Of a DNA stretch of 64,000 bases, positions 4,668 through 42,145 are shown piece by piece (within the stretch, counting starts at the first letter, position 1; every line of letters begins with the position of its first letter). The notes below the pieces were generated by a model. The model was not told the origin of the DNA. It saw only the letters and a list, made by a program, of their open reading frames with translations, and searched no databases. The position numbers were made by a program, and so were the translations under genes. This DNA is from Candidatus Humimicrobiia bacterium (GTDB taxonomy: Bacteria; Actinomycetota; Humimicrobiia; JAHJRV01): assembly GCA_049647085.1 (NCBI GenBank), contig JBARXA010000006.1:2670-66669 (forward strand). Direction: 5' to 3'.

Positions 4668-5912
4668 TTATTGAGTAGGATCAAAAACTCTTCCCATAAA
4701 TAGAACATTACCAGTTTCTCTTTCTTGTATCATAAATATAAATGGGTGATCTGCATTAAAAACAGTTTTTTCAGAAATAGCTTCTTTCATAACTACAGCA
4801 GTTGCAGCTGCAGCTTCAGTTCCTTCTTCATTAACCTCAACAAAAGCTTGGTGAATTACATTACTAATGAAAAGAGTTTTTGTACCATTCATTCCTGAGA
4901 AATCTGCACCACCAAAAGCAGATGGCATTCCCATTTCAATTAATGTCTCTTTCATAAAATATTTAGTTTCAAATTTAAATTTAGGTATATAAACATCAAC
5001 TTCTTGTTTTGTTAGAGCATTTCTTAATTCATTAAGTTTTTCCAAACTGAGTAAATCTTCTACTGATTTTAAATTATCTTCTTTTGGAAGAATAATTAAC
5101 ATTGACAATTCTTCTCCATCATATGGCATCTCAAGAACCCGAAGCTCTTCGGTTTCAGCATAGTTAAATTCTTCATCAGTTAAACTCATCATATCAACTT
5201 TAACTGTTTTTTCGGAACTTACTTTAAAATCTTCTTCTCTAGTATCTTCTTTATTAAATTGAAGCAACCATGTTCCTTTAAAATATATTGCATTGGTGAG
5301 AACTAAGCGTGTATCTGGGTCAAGAACACCTTGTGGTATTAAGTCTTTTATTTTATTGTTTGTCCTTTCTTCTACCCAGCTGTTAATTGTTTTTCTTGAC
5401 TTTTCAGTTTCATTTACAAAATCTAAATTTGTAGCTTTTCCAGCATAATATTTTTCTACTACATCTAAATATTCATCTAAAAAAAGATAATCTATTTGTG
5501 TCCACAGTGCATTTGCTGTATGTAGTTTATATTTCTTATCTTTTTTATTTATCTGATTGTAAATTCTTGCAAAAGAGTATCTGCGAATATCATCATCTTG
5601 GGGTAAATAAAAAACAGACCTCATCTCTTCCGCTGTTTTTCCTCTTGCTCCTTCATAAGTCATTGCCAGTGCTGTAGAGATACTGTATGGAGAGAAAAAG
5701 ATATTGTCCTCACTATATTCCGGGGTATCTTTAAATTTTAAATACAAATCTAATGCAAATTGATTATTAGCATCTACAACAATACCAACCCCTTCATTGG
5801 TTGCTTTGCTATCAGCTGCTGTTGGTATTATTTCTTCTGGATTCTCCGGTGCTTTAACACAACCATTAATTAGAATAATTACTAAAAATAATAATAATAA
5901 AATGTGTTTCAT
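4668..5912 (-). CDS. serpin (serine protease inhibitor), lipoprotein
   Basis: 414 aa. Signal peptide with an LINGC lipobox. C-terminal serpin signature ...FNADHPFIFMIQERETGNVLFMGRV. Confidence 0.85.
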   Translation of the reverse strand: MKHILLLLFLVIILINGCVKAPENPEEIIPTAADSKATNEGVGIVVDANNQFALDLYLKFKDTPEYSEDNIFFSPYSISTALAMTYEGARGKTAEEMRSVFYLPQDDDIRRYSFARIYNQINKKDKKYKLHTANALWTQIDYLFLDEYLDVVEKYYAGKATNLDFVNETEKSRKTINSWVEERTNNKIKDLIPQGVLDPDTRLVLTNAIYFKGTWLLQFNKEDTREEDFKVSSEKTVKVDMMSLTDEEFNYAETEELRVLEMPYDGEELSMLIILPKEDNLKSVEDLLSLEKLNELRNALTKQEVDVYIPKFKFETKYFMKETLIEMGMPSAFGGADFSGMNGTKTLFISNVIHQAFVEVNEEGTEAAAATAVVMKEAISEKTVFNADHPFIFMIQERETGNVLFMGRVFDPTQ

Positions 5913-6109: not shown

Positions 6110-6349
6110 ATGGTAAGAAAAGTTCTTAGTCTTTCATTACCCCCAAGTTTATATAAAGAATATGAGAAATTGGCAAAAAAAAGTGGCAAGAATAAGAGCC
6201 AGCTTTTCAGAGAAATGATATTTCTTTACGAACAAGAAAAGATGAAAGACGATTTTTATAAAATCCAAAGGAAAATTTCTAAAGTTGTGCGAAAAAAGGG
6301 TATTTATACTGAAGAAGATGTAAAAAAGATTGTCTTTGAGGAGCGCTAA
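6110..6349 (+). CDS. ribbon-helix-helix (CopG/Arc-like) antitoxin
   Basis: 79 aa with an N-terminal beta-strand and helix pattern (VLSLSLPPSLYKEYEKLAKKSGKNKSQLFREMI). Directly upstream of a PIN gene. Confidence 0.5.
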   Translation: MVRKVLSLSLPPSLYKEYEKLAKKSGKNKSQLFREMIFLYEQEKMKDDFYKIQRKISKVVRKKGIYTEEDVKKIVFEER

Positions 6350-6350
6350 A

Positions 6351-6764
6351 GTGCGCGTTGTTTTTGATACAAATGTCTATATTTCAACTTTTGGTATACC
6401 TGGAAGTAAGTCAGAAGATGCTTTCCTTCTCACATTAAAAGAAGAAACGAATCTCTTCATCTCAGTATCAATTCTTACTGAGATAGCTAATGTTCTTAAA
6501 AACAAGTTCAAGTTTTCTAATGAGATTATTCAAACTACACTCAAGTATATTAGCCAAATAGCCAGGTTTATCAAACCCCAGAGGTCAATTAAAGTTTTAA
6601 AAGATGAACCTGATAATCGTATTTTAGAATGTGCTATTGAAGCAAAAGCTGACTTTATTGTAACTGGTGATAAACATATCAAGCAACTTAACGAATATAA
6701 TGGTATAAAAATTGTCTCAGTTTCAGAATTCTTAGAACTTGCCAGCCAATATAAGATTAAATGA
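6351..6764 (+). CDS. PIN-domain toxin (VapC-like)
   Basis: VVFDTNVYIS ... IVTGDKH acidic PIN residues. GTG start with a GAGGAG RBS 7 nt upstream (TTG at 6330 is an alternative). Confidence 0.7.
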   Translation: MRVVFDTNVYISTFGIPGSKSEDAFLLTLKEETNLFISVSILTEIANVLKNKFKFSNEIIQTTLKYISQIARFIKPQRSIKVLKDEPDNRILECAIEAKADFIVTGDKHIKQLNEYNGIKIVSVSEFLELASQYKIK

Positions 6765-7245: not shown

Positions 7246-7923
7246 ATGGAAGAGAAATACAGGAAAATAAAAGGAATTGTTAAAAAAGAATTATCATGCT
7301 CTGCTCATAACGTGGAGCATATAATGAGAGTTTATAATCTATGTTTACATTTAGCAGAAAATGAACCAGATATAGATATAGATATTCTAAAAACAGCTGC
7401 CTTACTTCATGATATTGGAAGGGTTAAAGAAGATGAAGATGATTCTGGAAGAATTGACCATGCAATTCTTGGTACCAAAATGGCTGAAAAAATCTTAAGA
7501 AATTTAGGTTATGAAGAAAGTAAAATAGAAAAAATTAAACATTGCATAATGACTCATAGATTCAGAAGTGAAAATGTTCCCAAAACAAAGGAAGCAAAGA
7601 TTCTCTTTGATGCTGATAAATTGGATGTTCTTGGTTCAATAGGAATTGCAAGAGCTTTTATTATAGCGGGACAATATGGAGAGAAAATTTATTCTGATAT
7701 TCCTATTGATAAATATACTAAAGATAATATTGTTGGTGAGAAGCAAAATGGTAGAATCAAAGATTTATCCAAACATGCTGTAAATCTTGAGTTTGAAATG
7801 AAATTCAAACATATTCCAGAAAAGCTCTACACTAAAAAAGCGAAAGAAATTGCAAAACAAAGATTTAAATTTATGAAACAGTTCTTTAAGAGATTAAAGA
7901 GGGAAATTAACGGAGAAATATAA
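7246..7923 (+). CDS. HD-domain phosphohydrolase
   Basis: H...HD motif (HNVEH ... LHDIGR) and downstream D. Confidence 0.7.
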   Translation: MEEKYRKIKGIVKKELSCSAHNVEHIMRVYNLCLHLAENEPDIDIDILKTAALLHDIGRVKEDEDDSGRIDHAILGTKMAEKILRNLGYEESKIEKIKHCIMTHRFRSENVPKTKEAKILFDADKLDVLGSIGIARAFIIAGQYGEKIYSDIPIDKYTKDNIVGEKQNGRIKDLSKHAVNLEFEMKFKHIPEKLYTKKAKEIAKQRFKFMKQFFKRLKREINGEI

Positions 7924-11649: not shown

Positions 11650-12855
11650 ATGAGAAAAGCATTTGAAATAGCACTGTTAAACTTAAAGCTCTTATTTAAG
11701 GATAAGATGTCTCTTATGATGATGTTTGTAATTCCATTATTTATGACAATGATTATGGGTCTTGTATGGGGAGGAATGGGTGAGAATAGACTAAAAGTAA
11801 TAATTGTTGATGAGGATAAATCAAATTACTCCTCTATGTTTACGGATATATTAAAAGAAGATGAACTTTTAAGTGTAATAAAAGATAATAAGAAAGACGC
11901 TATAGAAAAAGTAAGGAAGTCAAATGTTGAGTCAGCAATTGTAATTCCAAAAGATTTCGGAGATAAAATAAAAAGAGGTGGTGGAGCTAAATTAACAGTA
12001 ATAAAACTTGAGACATCAACGAGAGTATTTGTAGTTTTAGAAGTTGTGAGGGGTGCCATTAATAGGATAGCTACCAATTATTACACAGCAAATATGTCTA
12101 TAGATTATTTAAATAAGATTGGAACAACCGCTGAAAGTAATGAGGAAAATCTGTGGAAGAAAGTTTTCAAAGCTGCTCATGAGAATTGGAAACCAGCTTC
12201 ACCTGTTAGAGTTATTTTTGAAAATGTTGTTGCTTCAGAAGTAAGAGGTAAAAAAACTATAGCCAGTGGTTTTTCTCAGGGATCGTTGGGTTATGCAGTT
12301 ACATTTATAGGGTTTGTTTTAGTAGGTAATTCAGCAACAATAATGGAGGATAAGATTAAAAGAACTTTATTTAGGCTATTAAGTACACCAACTTACAAAA
12401 GCTCATATATTACTGGAAAAATATTAGGCTCAATTTTTGTGGGTATATTTCAGTTTACAATTCTAATTTTAGCGGGTAGATATTTATTTGGTGTTAGATG
12501 GGGAAGGGATCCATTAGGATTAATTCTGTTAATGGGTTCATATATAATATGCGGAACATCAATGGGAATCATGTTAGCATCGTTGGTAAAGACTATTGAC
12601 CAGGCCCATTCAATAGCTCCAGTTATTATGATGAGTATGGCTATGTTGGGTGGATGTTTCTGGCCAATAGAAGTTGTTCCCTCATATATGCAAACAGTTG
12701 CAAAATTTACCCCAACAGGTTTAACAATGAAAGGACTCACTGACCTTATAGTAAGAGGTTTAGGATTTCAAACTGTTATTACACCCAGCCTTACTCTACT
12801 TGGTATGTCATTAATATTCTTCACCCTTGGCATCTATTTCCTTCGCCTTAAATAG
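11650..12855 (+). CDS. ABC-2 family permease (paralog)
   Basis: Same architecture as 10365-11576. Confidence 0.75.
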   Translation: MRKAFEIALLNLKLLFKDKMSLMMMFVIPLFMTMIMGLVWGGMGENRLKVIIVDEDKSNYSSMFTDILKEDELLSVIKDNKKDAIEKVRKSNVESAIVIPKDFGDKIKRGGGAKLTVIKLETSTRVFVVLEVVRGAINRIATNYYTANMSIDYLNKIGTTAESNEENLWKKVFKAAHENWKPASPVRVIFENVVASEVRGKKTIASGFSQGSLGYAVTFIGFVLVGNSATIMEDKIKRTLFRLLSTPTYKSSYITGKILGSIFVGIFQFTILILAGRYLFGVRWGRDPLGLILLMGSYIICGTSMGIMLASLVKTIDQAHSIAPVIMMSMAMLGGCFWPIEVVPSYMQTVAKFTPTGLTMKGLTDLIVRGLGFQTVITPSLTLLGMSLIFFTLGIYFLRLK

Positions 12856-12904
12856 GTGTCAGATCTCGACATGTAGAATAGGTGTCAGGTCTTGACATGA
12901 GACA
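12850..12904 (+). repeat. tandem pair of hairpin units (AATAGGTGTCAGATCTCGACATG / AATAGGTGTCAGGTCTTGACATGAGACAT)
   Basis: Two adjacent near-identical units. A third copy is at 37511-37535. Contains TTGACA. Confidence 0.6.
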
Positions 12905-13010
12905 TATTAGAATTATTAAATAGAAATTTCTCTATCTCCTCAGCCTTTTTATTTGGGAACACATTTTGTGATAAATTGATATAATATTTATAAATAAGTG
13001 AAATAAACTT

Positions 13011-13101
13011 GGAGGAGTGCAGGAGTGGCCGATCTGGCGATACTGGAAATATCGTAGGCGGTGAAAGTCGCCTCGTGGGTTCGAATCCCACCTCCTCCGC
13101 C
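13011..13101 (+). tRNA. tRNA-Ser (anticodon GGA), class II with long variable arm, encoded CCA
   Basis: Acceptor stem GGAGGAG/CTCCTCC, U8, 3-bp D-stem with GG in the loop, anticodon stem CGATA/TATCG with loop CTGGAAA, variable stem GGCG/CGCC, T-arm GTGGG-TTCGAAT-CCCAC, then G-CCA. Confidence 0.85.
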
Positions 13102-13315
13102 AATTTTAAAATAAAGTGCTTTTCACCAAAATCCCCTCCATGCAATTTATACTTCAAAACTAAAAGAAAAATATTATAGAGTCGATTGTTTTCATGTTCC
13201 TATTTTATGTCTATTTCAATTGACTTTGAATATTTTAAATAATTCTCCAATCTGTTAAAATTAAAAAAGTCTATTTACAAGGTAATTTTCTACATTAATA
13301 TATAGGAGAATTGAT

Positions 13316-13606
13316 ATGGGAAAAACAGATCCGATCTGCGGGGAAAAAGGAACAATAGAAGCTTACAGTCATTATTTTTGTAGCAAAGAATGCATTAGTA
13401 TATATGAAGAAAAATATAATATTAAAAGAGAAAGAGATTATATTACTGGTGCTAAATCAGAAAAATGGTATAGGGAAAAAACTTTTTTAGTTATTCTTTG
13501 TTTAATCTGGGGTAATATAGGTAAGAAAGTTGCTATTTGGCTTCCGATTATAACAGTTCCTCAAATCCTTATCTTAGGATATCTATTCAATAATTTCTTT
13601 AAGTAA
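13316..13606 (+). CDS. YHS/TRASH-like zinc-finger domain fused to a C-terminal membrane segment
   Basis: DPICGEKGT...YFCSKEC pattern. Confidence 0.4.
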   Translation: MGKTDPICGEKGTIEAYSHYFCSKECISIYEEKYNIKRERDYITGAKSEKWYREKTFLVILCLIWGNIGKKVAIWLPIITVPQILILGYLFNNFFK

Positions 13607-13685: not shown

Positions 13686-13715
13686 TTGACAAATAATAAA
13701 TTTTTGATTTAGAAT
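13686..13715 (+). promoter_or_regulatory. sigma70-like promoter (TTGACA - 18 nt - TAGAAT)
   Basis: Hexamers at 13686-13691 and 13710-13715. Confidence 0.45.
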
Positions 13716-13723
13716 TTTACCCA

Positions 13724-13905
13724 ACAATAGAAAATTTAATAATTTGCTGAATTCAAAAGAAGCGGAGGAACCATCTTTTTGGGGTGAATCTTGCAAAAGC
13801 AAGTAGGGTTAAAGTCTTTCGATCCAAACCCGTCAGCTAACTCCGTAAGCATTGAGAGATGTTCATCTGGTCACTGATGGTTTCTCCAGTGACTTTATTT
13901 TTTAA
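13724..13905 (+). ncRNA. candidate structured leader or small RNA ending in an intrinsic terminator, immediately 5' of the HEAT-repeat gene
   Basis: GC-richer than the flanks, with local hairpins such as CTTGC-AAAA-GCAAG. It is bounded by the 13686 promoter and the 13870 terminator. No known riboswitch consensus was recognised. Confidence 0.35.
13870..13905 (+). terminator. intrinsic terminator (GTCACTG-ATGGTTTCTC-CAGTGAC then TTTATTTTTT)
   Basis: 7-bp perfect stem plus a T-run, 5 nt before the ATG at 13911. Confidence 0.6.
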
Positions 13906-13910
13906 TAGAT

Positions 13911-14816
13911 ATGAACATGAAGACATTTAATTTATTTGAGCCAAATATAGAAGAAATGATAAAAAGAAAAGATGTTATAGGTTTGATAAAAAGCTTAAAA
14001 CATAAGGATTTTGTCGTACGGAGGCATGCAGTATGGGCTCTTGGAAATATAGGGGATACAAGAGGTGTGGAACCTCTAATTCAAGCTTTAAAAGATGAAC
14101 ATGTCTTTGTTCGAGGAGCAGCAGCATTAGCTCTTGGATTAATGAGAGATGTAAGGATATTAGAACCTCTTATTCAGGCTCTCAAAGATACAAATTTGTA
14201 TGTTAAATCAGCAGCAGCATTGGCTCTTGGGAATATAGGAGAACCAGCAGTAAAACCACTAATTAAGATTCTCAAAGATAAAAACTTACATGTTCAAGCA
14301 GCAGCAACAGAAGCCCTTGGAAGAATAGGGGAGCCTGCAGTAGATTCTCTAATTCAAGCTCTGAAAGATGAACATACCTTTGTTAAAGCAGCAGCAGCAT
14401 TAGCTCTTGGATTAATAAAAGATGTAAAAGCAGTAGAACCATTAATTAATGCCCTTAAAGATAAAGATAAAGATGTACGAATAAGTGTAGTAGAAGCTCT
14501 TGGAAAAATAGGGGATTTAAAAGCAGTAGAACCATTAATTCAGACCCTTAAAGATGAGGATGCGGTTGTTAAGAGATACACAGCAGAAGCTCTTGGAAGG
14601 ATAGAGAATGTAATAGCAATTGAACCTCTAATTCAAGTTCTTAAAGATAAAAATTTGTATGTTCAAGCAGCAGCAACAGCTGCTCTTGGAAAGATAGGAG
14701 AACCGGCAATAGAACCTTTAATTCAAGCTCTAAAAAACAAAGATGAGGATCTTCAGAGGGCAGCTAAAAGGATTTTAATTAGAATTAGAGCAAAGAAATC
14801 TAAGAATGATAGGTAA
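13911..14816 (+). CDS. HEAT-repeat protein (PBS-lyase HEAT-like repeats)
   Basis: About nine tandem 31-aa repeats (EPLIQALKD.. ..VR..AA.ALG.IG). Confidence 0.8.
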   Translation: MNMKTFNLFEPNIEEMIKRKDVIGLIKSLKHKDFVVRRHAVWALGNIGDTRGVEPLIQALKDEHVFVRGAAALALGLMRDVRILEPLIQALKDTNLYVKSAAALALGNIGEPAVKPLIKILKDKNLHVQAAATEALGRIGEPAVDSLIQALKDEHTFVKAAAALALGLIKDVKAVEPLINALKDKDKDVRISVVEALGKIGDLKAVEPLIQTLKDEDAVVKRYTAEALGRIENVIAIEPLIQVLKDKNLYVQAAATAALGKIGEPAIEPLIQALKNKDEDLQRAAKRILIRIRAKKSKNDR

Positions 14817-14830
14817 ATTTTTATAAAGAG

Positions 14831-14865
14831 ATTGCCACGCCACCCTCGGTGGCTCGCAACGACAA
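14831..14865 (-). repeat. family-1 REP-like repeat (ATTGCCACGCCACCCTCGGTGGCTCGCAACGACAA)
   Basis: GCCACC-CTC-GGTGGC perfect hairpin. Reverse complement of the 10262 type. Confidence 0.7.
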
Positions 14866-14925
14866 CTAAAGAAATCTAAAAATGATAAGTGAATTTTATA
14901 ACTTAAACAAAATAAGGTAAGAAAT

Positions 14926-16122
14926 ATGAAAAGAGAAGAAATATTACAGAATGCAAAGGGTTATTGTTTTTTCATTGGATTAAATGATAGTGGAGCAGAA
15001 TTATGTAGAGCTAATACTGTTTATGGCATTGCAGCAATTCATTACATTCAACATCAACTTGGTATGAGCCCAAATGCTACTTTTATTGCTTCACCAGATA
15101 TGACCATTACTAGAAACACAAATAGATGGAAAAGCGGGTTTGGATATGGAGGGAAGATAAGCTGGGGAGAAGGGGAAGATGAATTAATTATTCTTAACAC
15201 AAAGCCTAATGCATGTGGAATGCTTGTTGGCGGATTAGATAAATTACCCGATATTGAGGTTTTAATTAGAAAGCTACATAAGATGGAAACGAGTAAAATA
15301 CAGATGGATGGTGTTACATTGAAATGGGACTTTTACAAAGGAAATCACTTTATAGATATATTTGAAGTAGAACCCGTTGCAAAATTTGATATAAATCTAC
15401 CTCCATATGCTTTTGTAATACACGGATCTGCTGATGAATTTAGAGGGGATAATAAATCAGGTTTTGGAATATATTATGATAAGAGCAAACAATTGTATAA
15501 TATGGCAGAACGTATTAAGACACCTTTTGGAACTTTTAATATCCTAACAGGTAATGATGCTAAAAAGTATTTTGAAAAATATAATTATGTTGAGGATTTT
15601 GCAAAAAAGAAAAGGAGAATGGGTGCTGAACTCTTGTTTGAAGAATTCACAGAAATTTCTAATGAAATGCACCAAGGTCTTATAAATATAAATGAGATAA
15701 TTTTGGGTTGTCATTATTTAAGAAACTTAAATACACTTTTTTCAATAACACTAAGAGGAGATTTACCTGCCTATTTAGTAAAAGGTAACCCAAATTTGAG
15801 TCCCCAAAGTATAGAGTTATTAGGTTTTGAAAAAAGAGCAAAAAGATTGGGGGTTTATGATAGGCTTATAAATGCTAACATAATACCCCATGGTGGAGGA
15901 TATGTCTTTCCTGATATTTTAACTATAAATAAAGTGATAGAAGTTGAGAGGAAAAGATACTTTGAAGTTGAGATGCAAAACGATAGAGGTAAGAAAATCA
16001 TATCAGAAGTGCGGGAGTTAGCTTATGAATATAGAGGACGGAATGTAGTGCTGCGCGCTTTAGAAATTGGAATAATAGATATTGTAGCTAAGTTGATTCC
16101 ACAATATGTCTTAAAAATATAA
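14926..16122 (+). CDS. divergent RtcB-family RNA ligase-like protein
   Basis: 398 aa. NACGML resembles the RtcB GCGM Cys motif, KGNHFIDIFEV resembles RtcB GGGNHFIE, and IHGSADEFRG resembles RtcB HGAGR. It is shorter and divergent versus canonical RtcB. Confidence 0.45.
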   Translation: MKREEILQNAKGYCFFIGLNDSGAELCRANTVYGIAAIHYIQHQLGMSPNATFIASPDMTITRNTNRWKSGFGYGGKISWGEGEDELIILNTKPNACGMLVGGLDKLPDIEVLIRKLHKMETSKIQMDGVTLKWDFYKGNHFIDIFEVEPVAKFDINLPPYAFVIHGSADEFRGDNKSGFGIYYDKSKQLYNMAERIKTPFGTFNILTGNDAKKYFEKYNYVEDFAKKKRRMGAELLFEEFTEISNEMHQGLININEIILGCHYLRNLNTLFSITLRGDLPAYLVKGNPNLSPQSIELLGFEKRAKRLGVYDRLINANIIPHGGGYVFPDILTINKVIEVERKRYFEVEMQNDRGKKIISEVRELAYEYRGRNVVLRALEIGIIDIVAKLIPQYVLKI

Positions 16123-16144: not shown

Positions 16145-16564
16145 TTATTGTCTTATATAGTAATTTACCTCTTTTACGAAATCTGTGTAAAGCTTTATTG
16201 CTTCTTTGATGCTACTGTAAACAATATCATCCTTTATCTCATCATATTCGTGAACTAATCTATTTCTCAAACCAGCCGAGGGAGCTAATTTTTCTCCCAA
16301 TTGCTTTGATATTAATCCAATTTCAATAGCTTTTATAAATGAGTCATAATAATCAGTTGGTGGATTTTTTCCAATCTCAACAATAACATATGAATTTATA
16401 TCAGTTGCTACTTCTGCAAGTAATAAAATTAATCTTTCAACTGCTCTTTTTTTGATAAAATCTCTTTTGTATTCTTCAAAAGTAATGTTAGAAAAAGTTT
16501 TTAATTCCTGTATATAATTTTTTATTTTTAGTAGCTTGCTTAATACAATATCTTTGTTTATCAA
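16145..16564 (-). CDS. hepT: HepT (DUF86) RNase toxin
   Basis: 139 aa with the Rx4HxY motif in RNRLVHEY. Confidence 0.8.
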   Translation of the reverse strand: MINKDIVLSKLLKIKNYIQELKTFSNITFEEYKRDFIKKRAVERLILLLAEVATDINSYVIVEIGKNPPTDYYDSFIKAIEIGLISKQLGEKLAPSAGLRNRLVHEYDEIKDDIVYSSIKEAIKLYTDFVKEVNYYIRQ

Positions 16565-16630
16565 TTAATCCTCTTTATTTAACATAAGTAAACTGCTCTG
16601 TCTTGTGTAAGACGCTTCCCAGTAAAAAAT

Positions 16631-17287
16631 TCAAATTTTATTTTCCAATAAAAAGTTTTTAATACTTTTTTGATATAAATTACGAAATTTTTTTGTATCC
16701 ATATAGTACTTTAATGACTTTATTTTAAAATTATCCAGTATTTCCTTCTCTCTCTCAAATATTGCCGTTCCTTTAGTGGCTACCTCATATTTGAGTATTG
16801 GATTTGCTCGATTAAGAATTACTAAGTCAATATTATCCATCTTTAATAGTCTAACAAGGTCAGAGGAAATATCTAAAAGTAATTCTGAATATTTGTCTTT
16901 ACCTGTATCAGTTTTAAGAAGAATTCCAATATCCAGATCACTTAAAATTGTTGCATTATCAGTAGAGTAGGAACCAAATATAAAGGACGCAATTACCTCA
17001 GGACTGTTTTTAAAATAAATTCTAATTATTGAAAAAAGCTCAGCTTTCTTTTCTTTAGATATTTTTTTAATTTTTTCTACCGTGATTGTTTCTTTAGCTT
17101 CTGAATAAATGAGACCTTTTTTTTGTTCAACTGCCATATCTTTATCTCTTCTACCCATGTATTCTCTTAATGACTCTCTGATTAACTCACTTCTTTTTCT
17201 ATGTTCTTTTTTTGAGAATTCGTCAACCCTTGATAGAAAATCTTTTGGGATGGTTATATTAATTCTCTTAGCCATATTTATCACCAA
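16631..17287 (-). CDS. MNT (minimal nucleotidyltransferase) antitoxin with an N-terminal RHH DNA-binding domain
   Basis: N-terminus MAKRINITIPKDFLSRVDEF...SELIRESLREYM (RHH). GS-x10-DLD NTase motif (GSYSTDNATILSDLDIG). Immediately upstream of hepT. Confidence 0.75.
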   Translation of the reverse strand: MVINMAKRINITIPKDFLSRVDEFSKKEHRKRSELIRESLREYMGRRDKDMAVEQKKGLIYSEAKETITVEKIKKISKEKKAELFSIIRIYFKNSPEVIASFIFGSYSTDNATILSDLDIGILLKTDTGKDKYSELLLDISSDLVRLLKMDNIDLVILNRANPILKYEVATKGTAIFEREKEILDNFKIKSLKYYMDTKKFRNLYQKSIKNFLLENKI

Positions 17288-19420: not shown

Positions 19421-19530
19421 GTCGGTATATTATAATAGGGGATTGCCACGCCACCTTCAGTGGCTCGCAATGACAAACAGGAGCTGTTCAGAATGTCAAG
19501 AATTAAATAATCAGATATAAGTCAGTATAA
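19399..19530 (+). repeat. 30-bp direct duplication (GAATTAAATAATCAGATATAAGTC[G/A]GTATA) flanking an inserted family-1 repeat at 19442-19476
   Basis: Copy 1 at 19399-19430 is the last codons and stop of the AKR gene. Copy 2 is at 19499-19530. There is one mismatch. Confidence 0.7.
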
Positions 19531-23386: not shown

Positions 23387-23791
23387 ATGTCGAAAAAGCT
23401 TAAAACCCGCAGGAACACAATAGCTGTGTTGCTGGCAGTTTTGGTTCTACTAGCTAACTGCAGACCTTCTAAAGAGGTCAAGCTGGACGCTGGTAACAAT
23501 GGCAGCCAGATCGAGATCGAGCAAGGTCAAATCCTGGTCATTACATTGGAGGCTAATCCCACTACTGGTTATACGTGGGAAATGATCGAAAATGAGGAAC
23601 AAATCCTGCAGCAAGTAGGAGAAATTGAGTTTCAACCGGATTCTAAGTTAATAGGCGCTCCAGGTATACAGACCCTGCGTTTAGAGGCTGTTAATGTAGG
23701 AAAGATAACTCTCAAATTGATATACCACCGACCCTGGGAAGAGAATGTGGACCCACTAGAAACCTTCTCTGTCCAAGTGGTAGTACACTGA
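23387..23791 (+). CDS. chagasin-family (I42) cysteine-peptidase inhibitor, lipoprotein
   Basis: LLANC lipobox and the NPTTGYTWE signature. GC-enriched. Confidence 0.75.
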   Translation: MSKKLKTRRNTIAVLLAVLVLLANCRPSKEVKLDAGNNGSQIEIEQGQILVITLEANPTTGYTWEMIENEEQILQQVGEIEFQPDSKLIGAPGIQTLRLEAVNVGKITLKLIYHRPWEENVDPLETFSVQVVVH

Positions 23792-29626: not shown

Positions 29627-30214
29627 ATGAAGTACTTAAAACTTAGAAGACTAAAGAAAAACCTATATTTTACAGTTGAAGATGTAGCAAGTGTTTTAAA
29701 CATAAAACAATCTTCAGCACGTGTAATGTGCAGCCGCTATGCAAAAAACGGTTTTTTTATAAGATTAAAGAATAATTTTTATGTACTGTCTGAAAATTGG
29801 GATAAATTTTCCCGAGAAGATTTTTTAAGAATTTCAAATTATATTCAGGTTCCTTCTTATATCTCTTACATGACAGCTCTTATGAAATATGGTGTTACAA
29901 CGCAGGTGCAGCAGAATTTCTTTGAGTCTTGTTCTTTAAAGAGAACAAAGGTATTCGATGTCGGAGGAATAGAGTTTAGATATTATAAGATTAAGAAAGA
30001 TTATTATTTTGGATTTGAAAGAAAAAACAATATATTTTTAGCCACAAAAGAAAAAGCATTTATTGATACTACATATCTTTATTCTTTTGGAAAATACAGA
30101 ATTGATTTCAGTTCTCTCGATCTTAATAAATTAGATAAAGAAAAAATTATAGAAATCATTAATATATTTCCAGCAAAGACGAAAAAATTGGTGGGGAAAT
30201 TATGCGAGATCTAA
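29627..30214 (+). CDS. abiEi: AbiEi-family antitoxin / transcriptional regulator
   Basis: N-terminal wHTH (FTVEDVASVLNIKQSSARVMCSRYAKNGFFIRL). The gene overlaps the downstream AbiEii start. Confidence 0.65.
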   Translation: MKYLKLRRLKKNLYFTVEDVASVLNIKQSSARVMCSRYAKNGFFIRLKNNFYVLSENWDKFSREDFLRISNYIQVPSYISYMTALMKYGVTTQVQQNFFESCSLKRTKVFDVGGIEFRYYKIKKDYYFGFERKNNIFLATKEKAFIDTTYLYSFGKYRIDFSSLDLNKLDKEKIIEIINIFPAKTKKLVGKLCEI

Positions 30215-30873
30215 TTGAACAAGAAAAGTTTGAATTGGGCGTTTTAGACAGGTTAAATAGCAAGAGAATTCTTGAAAAACTTATATTTGTAGACGGAACC
30301 ATGTTACGGTTATGTCATGGACTTAACAGATTTTCAATTGATATAGATTTTTGGCTAACAAAAAAAGTTAATAAAAATAAATTATTTATAGAAATAAATA
30401 AATATTTTTCTCAGTTCTATAAGATAAGTGACAGTGCCAATAAATTGAATACACTACTTTTTGAATTTAAGTCTTCTAAATACCCAATGAACTTAAAATT
30501 AGAGATAAGAAAGGAGATCAAAAATATTGAAACTGAGCAGGTTATTGCTTATAGCAAATACTCTAATATACAGGTACTTCTAAGAGTTCCAACCCTTGAT
30601 GCAATGATGAGTGAAAAAATTGACGCTTTTCTTGAAAGAAAGGAGATAAGAGATATATTTGATATTGAGTTTTTATATAAAAAGGGAATTGAGCTCAAAG
30701 AATCTCCAGAAAAATTAATAAAAATACTTGATGGAATAAAATTATTTAAGAAAAATGATTATAAAGTAAAACTTGGGTCTTTGCTTGAGAAAGAGCAAAG
30801 GAAGTATTATATTAACGAGAATTTCAAAATCCTTAAAGCAGCTATAAAAGAGAAAAAGTTAGTGATATCTTAG
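30202..30873 (+). CDS. abiEii: AbiEii/AbiGii-family nucleotidyltransferase toxin (DUF1814)
   Basis: GTMLRLCHGLNRFSIDIDF NTase motif. Confidence 0.75.
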   Translation: MRDLIEQEKFELGVLDRLNSKRILEKLIFVDGTMLRLCHGLNRFSIDIDFWLTKKVNKNKLFIEINKYFSQFYKISDSANKLNTLLFEFKSSKYPMNLKLEIRKEIKNIETEQVIAYSKYSNIQVLLRVPTLDAMMSEKIDAFLERKEIRDIFDIEFLYKKGIELKESPEKLIKILDGIKLFKKNDYKVKLGSLLEKEQRKYYINENFKILKAAIKEKKLVIS

Positions 30874-41098: not shown

Positions 41099-42145
41099 AT
41101 GTTTAAACCAAAATTTACAATTACCAACAAAATAAACAAAGCTCTGCTTGAAATTGAAAGAGCGAGAGGGTTTCTCGAAGCAACTAAATTGAAAGAGGAG
41201 TGGATAAGAGAGATGCAAAGTGAGGCGCTCATACTCGAATCACATTATTCTACTCATATTGAGGGAACTAAATTAACTTTAGCACAATCAAAAAAAATTC
41301 TTACTGGAAAAACTGTAACAGGGATAAATAAAGATGACCGCCAAGAACTTTTAAACTATAAGGAAGCAATGGATTTTGTTTCAGAATATCTTGGAAAAAA
41401 ATCTGACATAACGGAGAATTTGGTAAAACAAATACATGAAATTTTGATTAAAGATGTAAGGGGAGGAACTCTTGAACCAGGAAAGTATAGAAAGGTTCAG
41501 AACTATGTAGTGAACTTACTTACTGGAGAGGTTGTTTATACCCCTCCACCACCTTCAGATGTTTCTCAGCTTATGAAGGAATTTGTTGATTGGTTAAATA
41601 ATAAATCCAATATTTCCCCAGTCCTAGCTGCAGGAATTAGCCAATATAAGCTTGTTGATATACATCCTTTCTTAGATGGAAATGGTAGGACAGCACGCGT
41701 TTTATGCACTCTTATTCTTTATCAAAATGGCTATGATTTTAAGAAACTTTTTTCATTATCTGAATACTATGATAAAGATAGAGCAGGATATTATGAAGCT
41801 ATTCAATCTGTTAGAGAAAATGAGATGTATATGACTTATTGGCTAGAATATTTTACAGAAGGTTTAAAAAATCAATTGATAGAAGTGAGGGCAAAAGGAG
41901 AAAAAGCTATTAAGAAAGAGATTATCATCGAAAAAGCAAAAAAATTTAATTTGAATGAGAGACAACAAAAAATTTTATTGCTTTTATTAAAAAAAGAGCG
42001 AGTTTCAGTTGAAGAAATGCGGAATATATTAAATTTGGTTAGAAGAACTGTTCAGCGGGATCTATCAAAACTATGTGATTTAAATTTAGTTAAAGAAATT
42101 TCCAAAAGCAAGACAGATCCCACAAAATATTATAAGTTACTGTGA
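41099..42145 (+). CDS. Fic-family protein with C-terminal winged-HTH
   Basis: HPFLDGNGRTARVL Fic motif. C-terminal DeoR-like HTH. Confidence 0.85.
   Translation: MFKPKFTITNKINKALLEIERARGFLEATKLKEEWIREMQSEALILESHYSTHIEGTKLTLAQSKKILTGKTVTGINKDDRQELLNYKEAMDFVSEYLGKKSDITENLVKQIHEILIKDVRGGTLEPGKYRKVQNYVVNLLTGEVVYTPPPPSDVSQLMKEFVDWLNNKSNISPVLAAGISQYKLVDIHPFLDGNGRTARVLCTLILYQNGYDFKKLFSLSEYYDKDRAGYYEAIQSVRENEMYMTYWLEYFTEGLKNQLIEVRAKGEKAIKKEIIIEKAKKFNLNERQQKILLLLLKKERVSVEEMRNILNLVRRTVQRDLSKLCDLNLVKEISKSKTDPTKYYKLL

Follow-up and report, generated by a model that had tools for sequence, protein, structure and literature searches.

A predicted c-di-AMP (ydaO/yuaA) riboswitch upstream of HEAT-repeat and RtcB-fold protein genes in Candidatus Humimicrobiia

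A 64-kb stretch of DNA (the window) from a metagenome-assembled genome (MAG) of Candidatus Humimicrobiia, a deep-branching and uncultivated class of Actinomycetota, carries a leader of the cyclic di-AMP (c-di-AMP) riboswitch class, known as ydaO/yuaA or RF00379. We consider it very probable (about 0.85) that positions 13686-13903 form a complete cis-regulatory unit, made up of a promoter, a c-di-AMP aptamer and an intrinsic terminator, part of whose sequence can alternatively pair as an antiterminator. The unit stands before a gene for a HEAT-repeat protein, followed by a gene for a 398-amino-acid (398-aa) protein of predicted RtcB fold. An earlier reading of the same DNA (the original prediction) had proposed that this interval is a riboswitch or another transcription-attenuation leader. 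The RF00379 match and the terminator/antiterminator platform described below support this proposal.

The aptamer assignment rests on a covariance-model match. RF00379 aligns with the window over its full length (model positions 1-134 of 134, not truncated) with a score of 104.2 bits (the gathering threshold is 38) and an E-value of 1e-23. With this E-value over 64 kb, and with RF00379 as the sole Rfam match in the whole window, a chance match is excluded. The original prediction had found no match to a riboswitch consensus and recommended an Rfam/Infernal scan; the scan places the leader in a class that is already known. All 26 consensus pairs of RF00379 are standard pairs in the window aptamer, and it has the consensus base at 51 of the 56 highly conserved (upper-case) positions. 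At two of the other five the changes compensate each other and convert a G-C pair into A-U; a third converts G-C into G-U. Six further pairs join UCUUUC with GAGAGA, which we take to be the pseudoknot of the class. The hairpins originally offered as examples fare differently. CTTGCAAAAGCAAG (13790-13803) is a genuine aptamer helix, while GGGTTAAAG...CCAAACCC is not a single helix and is split over two nested ones (13806-09 with 13822-25, and 13782-84 with 13829-31). That the host produces c-di-AMP is suggested by the riboswitch itself.

The predicted promoter is of the sigma-70 type and lies 20 nt upstream of the aptamer. A consensus scan for promoters and terminators covered 3.6 kb around the leader, with a maximum hairpin loop of 8 nt. 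In this region TTGACA-18-TAGAAT is the best plus-strand promoter match and agrees with the consensus at 11 of 12 positions, in line with the promoter that had been proposed. Both boxes are conserved. The -35 box is identical in 14 of 14 related leaders, and the -10 box (TAGAAT, TAAAAT or TATAAT) keeps a constant position in the 14 despite differing spacer sequences. From this promoter, transcription is expected to start at about 13722. The approximately 180 nt that follow the promoter have a G+C content of 40%, compared with 31.4% for the window, so that the leader is indeed comparatively GC-rich, as had been noted. A minus-strand promoter-like site (13692-13664, TTGTCA-17-TATAAT, 11/12) sits back to back over the riboswitch promoter. 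We judge this site to be a chance occurrence, because it is the TTGACA box read in reverse in DNA of about 80% A+T, its -10 box is not kept in the related contig L003, and no minus-strand gene follows it.

The terminator is composed of GGUCACUG (13869-76), a 10-nt loop, CAGUGACU (13887-94) and the tract UUUAUUUUUU, which runs to 13903. Its stem has 8 bp, including four G-C pairs and one G-U, and nine of the ten tract positions are U. A strong terminator with a 7-bp stem had been placed at 13870-13905, abutting the ATG at 13911 at a distance of 5 nt. The hairpin, the U-tract and the closeness to the start codon are real; the extent and the stem length needed small corrections, and the gap is 7 nt from the end of the U-tract (17 nt from the end of the hairpin). 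The unconstrained minimum free energy (MFE) fold of the predicted transcript 13722-13903 has an energy of -46.7 kcal/mol and holds neither the aptamer nor the terminator. It pairs 13756-75, a strand whose central part belongs to the conserved ligand-binding core of the aptamer, with 13876-96, which comprises the loop and the 3' arm of the terminator. A fold constrained to keep the Rfam aptamer pairs contains the terminator hairpin and has an energy of -33.9 kcal/mol, a value that excludes ligand and tertiary energy. In two related leaders (L021 and L096), a C-G pair of the antiterminator has become U-A through changes on both sides (C13775U with G13876A in L021).

These two alternative folds suggest how the switch would work. 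When c-di-AMP is scarce, the nascent RNA would pair the aptamer core strand with the terminator loop and 3' arm. With the antiterminator paired, the terminator would be prevented and RNA polymerase would read into the HEAT-repeat and RtcB-fold genes. When c-di-AMP is abundant, the ligand would lock the aptamer, including its pseudoknot, and sequester the core strand. The 8-bp hairpin and the U-tract would then stop transcription at about 13896-13903, leaving an RNA of about 180 nt. On this model the unit is most likely a transcriptional OFF switch. In riboswitches of the RF00379 class the ligand favours terminator formation, and they are hence regarded as OFF switches (PMC9960051, PMC7266159).

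Related leaders come from three sources: a scan of genomes that used the 398-aa protein family as query, searches with Rfam and with a custom covariance model (R1), and a metagenome scan for the aptamer pattern. Rfam and R1 locate the aptamer in L003 and L021. The metagenome scan adds 14 more contigs, and the aptamer is confirmed in all of them. The contigs show three arrangements downstream of the riboswitch, types A, B and C (Table 1); one further contig, L095, ends inside the aptamer at the contig edge and gives no downstream context. The HEAT gene is confined to type A, where it takes the same position in L003, L084, L091, L089 and L094. The 398-aa gene is common to types A and B, which makes it the conserved target of the riboswitch.

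In an alignment of 13 leaders, pairing is possible at 100% in aptamer helices 1-7 and in the pseudoknot, at 93% in the terminator (helix 9) and at 89% in the antiterminator. Controls in which the partner strand is slid by 1-3 columns give 30-61% overall, and 38-50% for the aptamer helices and the pseudoknot. The pseudoknot (helix 8) is paired in all 13, with UA-to-UG changes accompanying the GAAAGA and GAAGGA tails of the relatives, and two pairs of the terminator stem are changed on both sides. The leader is conserved and its helices remain pairable in relatives.

The HEAT-repeat protein varies in length among close relatives, with 270 aa in L003 (3079-3891), 301 aa in the window and about 332 aa in L084 (reverse strand, oriented 12218-13213). 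This suggests gain and loss of repeat units. Between the HEAT and 398-aa genes there is a 76-bp insertion with a G+C-rich palindromic core, GCCACCCTCGGTGGCTCGCAA, of which a second copy is present at 19450-19470. A 30-nt stretch is directly repeated here, once at 14792-14821, where it takes in the end of the HEAT gene, and again at 14868-14897, at the end of the insertion. The window and L003 have the insertion; L084 and L091 lack it, and in these the two genes are 37 nt apart. The insertion looks like a small mobile or repetitive extragenic palindromic (REP)-like repeat, and it is not an obvious terminator because it has no U-tract. The consensus scan flags no plus-strand promoter-like or terminator-like site between 13911 and 14926. 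Taken together with the short spacer in L084 and L091 and the lack of a U-tract in the insertion, this makes co-transcription of the two genes likely.

The second gene is annotated as a hypothetical protein. The protein has no match in Pfam or NCBIfam, and no sequence or profile match in the PDB, RtcB included. It belongs to a large family, in which about 1,000 clusters at 90% identity match at E <= 0.001. Members from Planctomycetota, Anaerolineae, Spirochaetota and Bacillota are 65-79% identical to it, and those from archaea (Methanocellales, Thorarchaeota and Promethearchaeota, thus including Asgard archaea) are 43-53% identical. An AlphaFold2 model built on a 64-sequence alignment has a predicted local distance difference test score (pLDDT) of 92 and a predicted template modelling score (pTM) of 0.92. 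It supersedes an earlier AlphaFold model from 14 similar sequences, which had a pLDDT of 55 and gave no significant result in the fold search. The best 16 PDB matches of the new model in Foldseek are all RtcB, from human, zebrafish, Pyrococcus and Thermus, with E-values of 3.5e-7 to 7e-5, probability 1.00 and template modelling (TM) scores of 0.45-0.50; the next match has an E-value of 0.2. The description of this gene as RtcB-like in the original prediction thus holds at the level of the fold.

The metal-binding Cys and His residues of RtcB, and its guanylylated nucleophilic His, may have counterparts in the family. C97, N140-H141, H166, H249 and H322 are invariant in the 64 sequences, and their order is that of the RtcB motifs DINCG, GNHF, HTGS, AHN and CHGAG (sequences of 2epg and 1uc2). 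The invariant Cys/His motifs of the family itself read KPNACGM, GNHF, IHGS, HQG, PHGGGY and EYRGR. An hhalign comparison of the family with Thermus RtcB places PHGGGY on SCHGAGR in a weak match (probability 1.7%, E 0.028). The canonical RtcB motif H[ST]GSRG is absent from all sequences gathered in the analysis. The 398-aa protein, judged by its model, shares the fold of RtcB (PF01139; PDB entries 4dwq, 1uc2, 2epg and 7p3b) and is not a member of PF01139. It is about 80-100 residues shorter than RtcB, is 12-14% identical to it and falls outside the Pfam RtcB model. Its usual neighbour is also different: an HD-domain phosphohydrolase gene is the commonest across phyla, and in 23 of the 76 loci it directly adjoins the RtcB-fold gene on the same strand (for example L029, L009 and L057). 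The window contains an HD-domain protein gene (7246-7923, plus strand) 7 kb upstream of the 398-aa gene; its product is 25-36% identical to those neighbours.

Outside Humimicrobiia-type contigs, no riboswitch is found beside a 398-aa gene, either with Rfam in 36 loci or with R1 in all 83 sources; R1 is narrow and was run with default filters, so that weak, divergent aptamers are possible in the 44 loci scanned by R1 and not by Rfam. The link between the riboswitch and the 398-aa gene therefore appears specific to this lineage.

Table 1. Elements of the leader and the genes that follow it in the window, and arrangement of the related leaders
Feature	Position or contigs	Strand	Details
Sigma-70-type promoter	13686-13715	+	-35 TTGACA (13686-91), 18-nt spacer, -10 TAGAAT (13710-15)
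c-di-AMP riboswitch aptamer, RF00379 (ydaO/yuaA), predicted	13735-13865	+	Full-length Rfam match
Antiterminator 5' strand, predicted	13756-13775	+	Core GGAGGAACCAUC (13764-75), within the conserved ligand-binding aptamer core
Aptamer pseudoknot, presumed	UCUUUC 13815-20 with GAGAGA 13854-59	+	6 pairs
Intrinsic terminator	13869-13903	+	Stem 13869-76/13887-94, 10-nt loop, U-tract to 13903
Antiterminator 3' strand, predicted	13876-13896	+	Terminator loop and 3' arm
First regulated gene (predicted), 301-aa HEAT-repeat protein	13911-14816	+	HEAT_2 E 2.5e-62, HEAT_PBS E 2e-51
76-bp insertion between HEAT and 398-aa genes	14822-14897	+	G+C-rich palindromic core and second 30-nt repeat copy
Second regulated gene (predicted), 398-aa RtcB-fold protein	14926-16122	+	MGB3345833.1, locus tag WBA71_01075, 'hypothetical protein'
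Type A: riboswitch, HEAT gene, 398-aa gene	Window, L003, L084, L091
Type A, contig ending inside HEAT gene	L089, L094
Type B: riboswitch directly before 398-aa gene	L021, L086, L096		Riboswitch ~100-230 nt upstream of the gene
Type C: riboswitch and terminator, no same-strand open reading frame	L083, L085, L087, L088, L092, L093
Type C copies	L083:1653-1945, L085:1343-1565, L087:5386-5608 (-), L088:655-935, L093:1-188

Directly upstream of the riboswitch there is a 96-aa open reading frame (ORF; 13316-13606, plus strand). It can be aligned with the beginning of an ArsP_1-type permease gene in L003 (L003:1630-2786), from where the alignment jumps about 860 bp to the end of that gene. By this alignment it looks like a deletion remnant. 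On the other side, genes for a HepT-like RNase and an MntA-like nucleotidyltransferase with a ribbon-helix-helix (RHH) domain (16145-17287, minus strand) are convergent to the RtcB-fold gene, with a gap of 22 nt. The window is dense in toxin-antitoxin or defence-type genes, and also encodes a PIN-domain protein (6330-6764), an AbiEii toxin (30202-30873) and a Fic protein (41099-42145), all on the plus strand. Two peptidase inhibitors uncommon in bacteria are present as well, a full-length serpin (4668-5912, minus strand, E 2e-126) and a chagasin-family (I42) inhibitor (23387-23791, plus strand).

The type C copies differ from the window copy in what follows the terminator. They are flanked by a gene for a beta-eliminating lyase on one side and by a convergent gene for phosphoglucose isomerase on the other. 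Their conserved block passes the terminator and continues through AAUUCCUCCUUAUCUU, a second, 10-bp G+C hairpin and AUUGAUUU, beyond which conservation is lost. In L093 one pair of the second hairpin has gone from A-U to G-C, a compensatory double change. The two hairpins fold at z = -9, and the unconstrained type C fold retains the first terminator. The extension matches no Rfam family and is absent from the window. Type C could represent a small RNA gated by the riboswitch; it could also control antisense transcripts that enter the isomerase gene, or be a remnant. One type C contig, L092 (1-1945), has a hybrid make-up. As far as the 5' part of the aptamer, upstream genes and promoter included, it is 94-98% identical to the window (type A), and it follows type C from the 3' tail of the aptamer onward. 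Either riboswitch paralogues have recombined naturally in it, or it is an assembly chimera formed at the conserved aptamer.

Several observations weigh against the window leader being a c-di-AMP-controlled transcriptional switch. The terminator is modest, with an energy of -10.8 kcal/mol when folded alone (z = -2.4), and the consensus scanner did not flag it; the scanner missed it because its loop limit is shorter than the loop of this hairpin. The unconstrained MFE fold keeps the terminator in L086, L088 and L083, so that a thermodynamic antiterminator is not universal in the lineage. The 13 leaders are 90% identical on average, and shuffled controls give pairing and covariation as high as those observed, so that the alignment lends no independent statistical support. 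We therefore claim compatibility with the structure and not statistical covariation; the covariation search that had been advised finds pairing kept in the relatives, at values that these controls equal. Genes for a diadenylate cyclase or a c-di-AMP phosphodiesterase are absent among the approximately 58 ORFs of the window. The HEAT-repeat and RtcB-fold genes lie outside the known regulon of the class, which comprises transporters for K+, osmolytes and amino acids, and cell-wall remodelling enzymes (PMC7266159, PMC3766115). Finally, no obvious Shine-Dalgarno sequence precedes the HEAT ATG, as originally noted, nor is there one in the relatives, whereas most window genes have one.

This last point bears on a different mode of action, in which control would be translational, or both transcriptional and translational, and the hairpin would gate access of the ribosome, as proposed for Corynebacterium glutamicum nlpC. 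The position of the ATG just past the U-tract and the lack of a Shine-Dalgarno sequence in every type A leader would fit such a mode. Actinobacterial c-di-AMP riboswitches, namely those of Streptomyces coelicolor rpfA and C. glutamicum nlpC, are moreover reported to lack canonical terminators and to be probably translational (PMC9960051). However, the window has a canonical hairpin, and its U-tract is present and conserved. In L021, L086 and L096 the target gene has its own Shine-Dalgarno sequence and begins 100 to about 230 nt further on, so that a mechanism common to these leaders cannot depend on blocking the start site. We regard translational control as improbable. A third possibility is that the unit serves chiefly to make a stand-alone small RNA (sRNA), with the RNA of about 180 nt or a read-through extension of it acting in trans or buffering c-di-AMP, and not to control the following genes in cis. 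The six type C contigs speak for it, since they carry the unit without a same-strand ORF, facing a convergent gene, have a conserved block that extends beyond the terminator and then stops, and in their predicted fold keep the terminator even without ligand. The window and eight other contigs, however, have a same-strand gene 7 to about 230 nt past the terminator; the window leader has a well-formed antiterminator and lacks the CCUCC-plus-hairpin extension, and cis control is the default for this class. An independent sRNA, the other option of the original prediction, is not needed to account for the window copy, for which we find it quite unlikely, and is relevant to the paralogous copies that have no downstream ORF.

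The nature of the ligand can be questioned too. The aptamer might sense another molecule, such as a related dinucleotide or ATP, an early proposal for the ydaO motif; a 2013 paper gives ATP as the ligand of RF00379 (PMC3766115). The class nevertheless binds c-di-AMP with picomolar affinity and does not directly recognise AMP, according to a review that summarises Nelson et al. 2013 (PMC7266159). The conserved positions are largely kept, the changes within helices are compensated or wobble, and nothing suggests an altered pocket. A different ligand is thus a very remote prospect, and c-di-AMP remains the expected effector of the proposed OFF switch.

What the unit does for the cell can be put forward only tentatively. 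It is conceivable, though we think it rather unlikely, that in Humimicrobiia the c-di-AMP riboswitch was recruited to a nucleic-acid end-joining or repair module, with repair turned on when c-di-AMP falls, and that the type C paralogues gate a stand-alone RNA carrying CCUCC, an anti-Shine-Dalgarno-like motif. The level of c-di-AMP falls when DisA-type cyclases stall on damaged DNA. In such a module the RtcB-fold enzyme, which occurs in many bacterial phyla and in archaea, may act with a lineage-specific HEAT-repeat partner. If true, this would tie c-di-AMP signalling to nucleic-acid repair and not to K+, osmolyte or cell-wall homeostasis. A physiological link would widen the c-di-AMP regulon towards RNA or DNA end repair, and would hint at conditions for enzyme assays.

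The RNA itself is ordinary and needs no new biology; it adds another example to the c-di-AMP riboswitches, from a deep-branching class of Actinomycetota that has not been cultivated. What is unusual is the cargo, an unnamed RtcB-fold family with a HEAT-repeat partner, which is atypical for this phylum, and the orphan paralogues in relatives add interest. The leader offers a regulatory handle on a very strongly conserved RtcB-fold family that has no name, Pfam model or known function. No paper linking RtcB with c-di-AMP riboswitches was found in the literature searched, where the five co-mentions look incidental by titles and term counts. Non-coding RNAs gated by riboswitches are known from other systems: in Listeria and Enterococcus a B12 riboswitch is joined to Rli55/EutX or AspocR, and the S-adenosylmethionine (SAM) riboswitch SreA acts in trans. 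These resemble only the type C copies, in which the terminator is followed by a conserved non-coding extension, and not the window copy with its ORFs.

Closer comparisons are found among c-di-AMP riboswitches. In Actinobacteria, almost all genes associated with this riboswitch are reported to be cell-wall related (PMC9960051). Those of S. coelicolor rpfA and of C. glutamicum nlpC and rpf1 share the phylum and the aptamer class of the window copy and precede cell-wall hydrolase genes, while the window copy has a canonical terminator/antiterminator and a cargo unrelated to the cell wall. The Humimicrobiia leader thus departs from the reported rule, under which c-di-AMP riboswitches of Actinobacteria stand before cell-wall genes and lack canonical terminators. 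In Bacillus thuringiensis a c-di-AMP riboswitch controls transcription of the whole kdpFABC operon (PMC6488665); the cargo there is a K+ transporter system and fits the classical osmotic and K+ regulon. The nearest likeness in layout is the prototype of RF00379, ydaO (kimA) of Bacillus subtilis, which has the same aptamer class, the same order of promoter, aptamer and terminator, and the same predicted OFF logic by premature termination (PMC9960051). The prototype controls a K+ importer in a member of the Bacillota, whereas the copy described here, in a deep-branching actinomycetotal class, is predicted to control a HEAT-repeat protein and an RtcB-fold protein.

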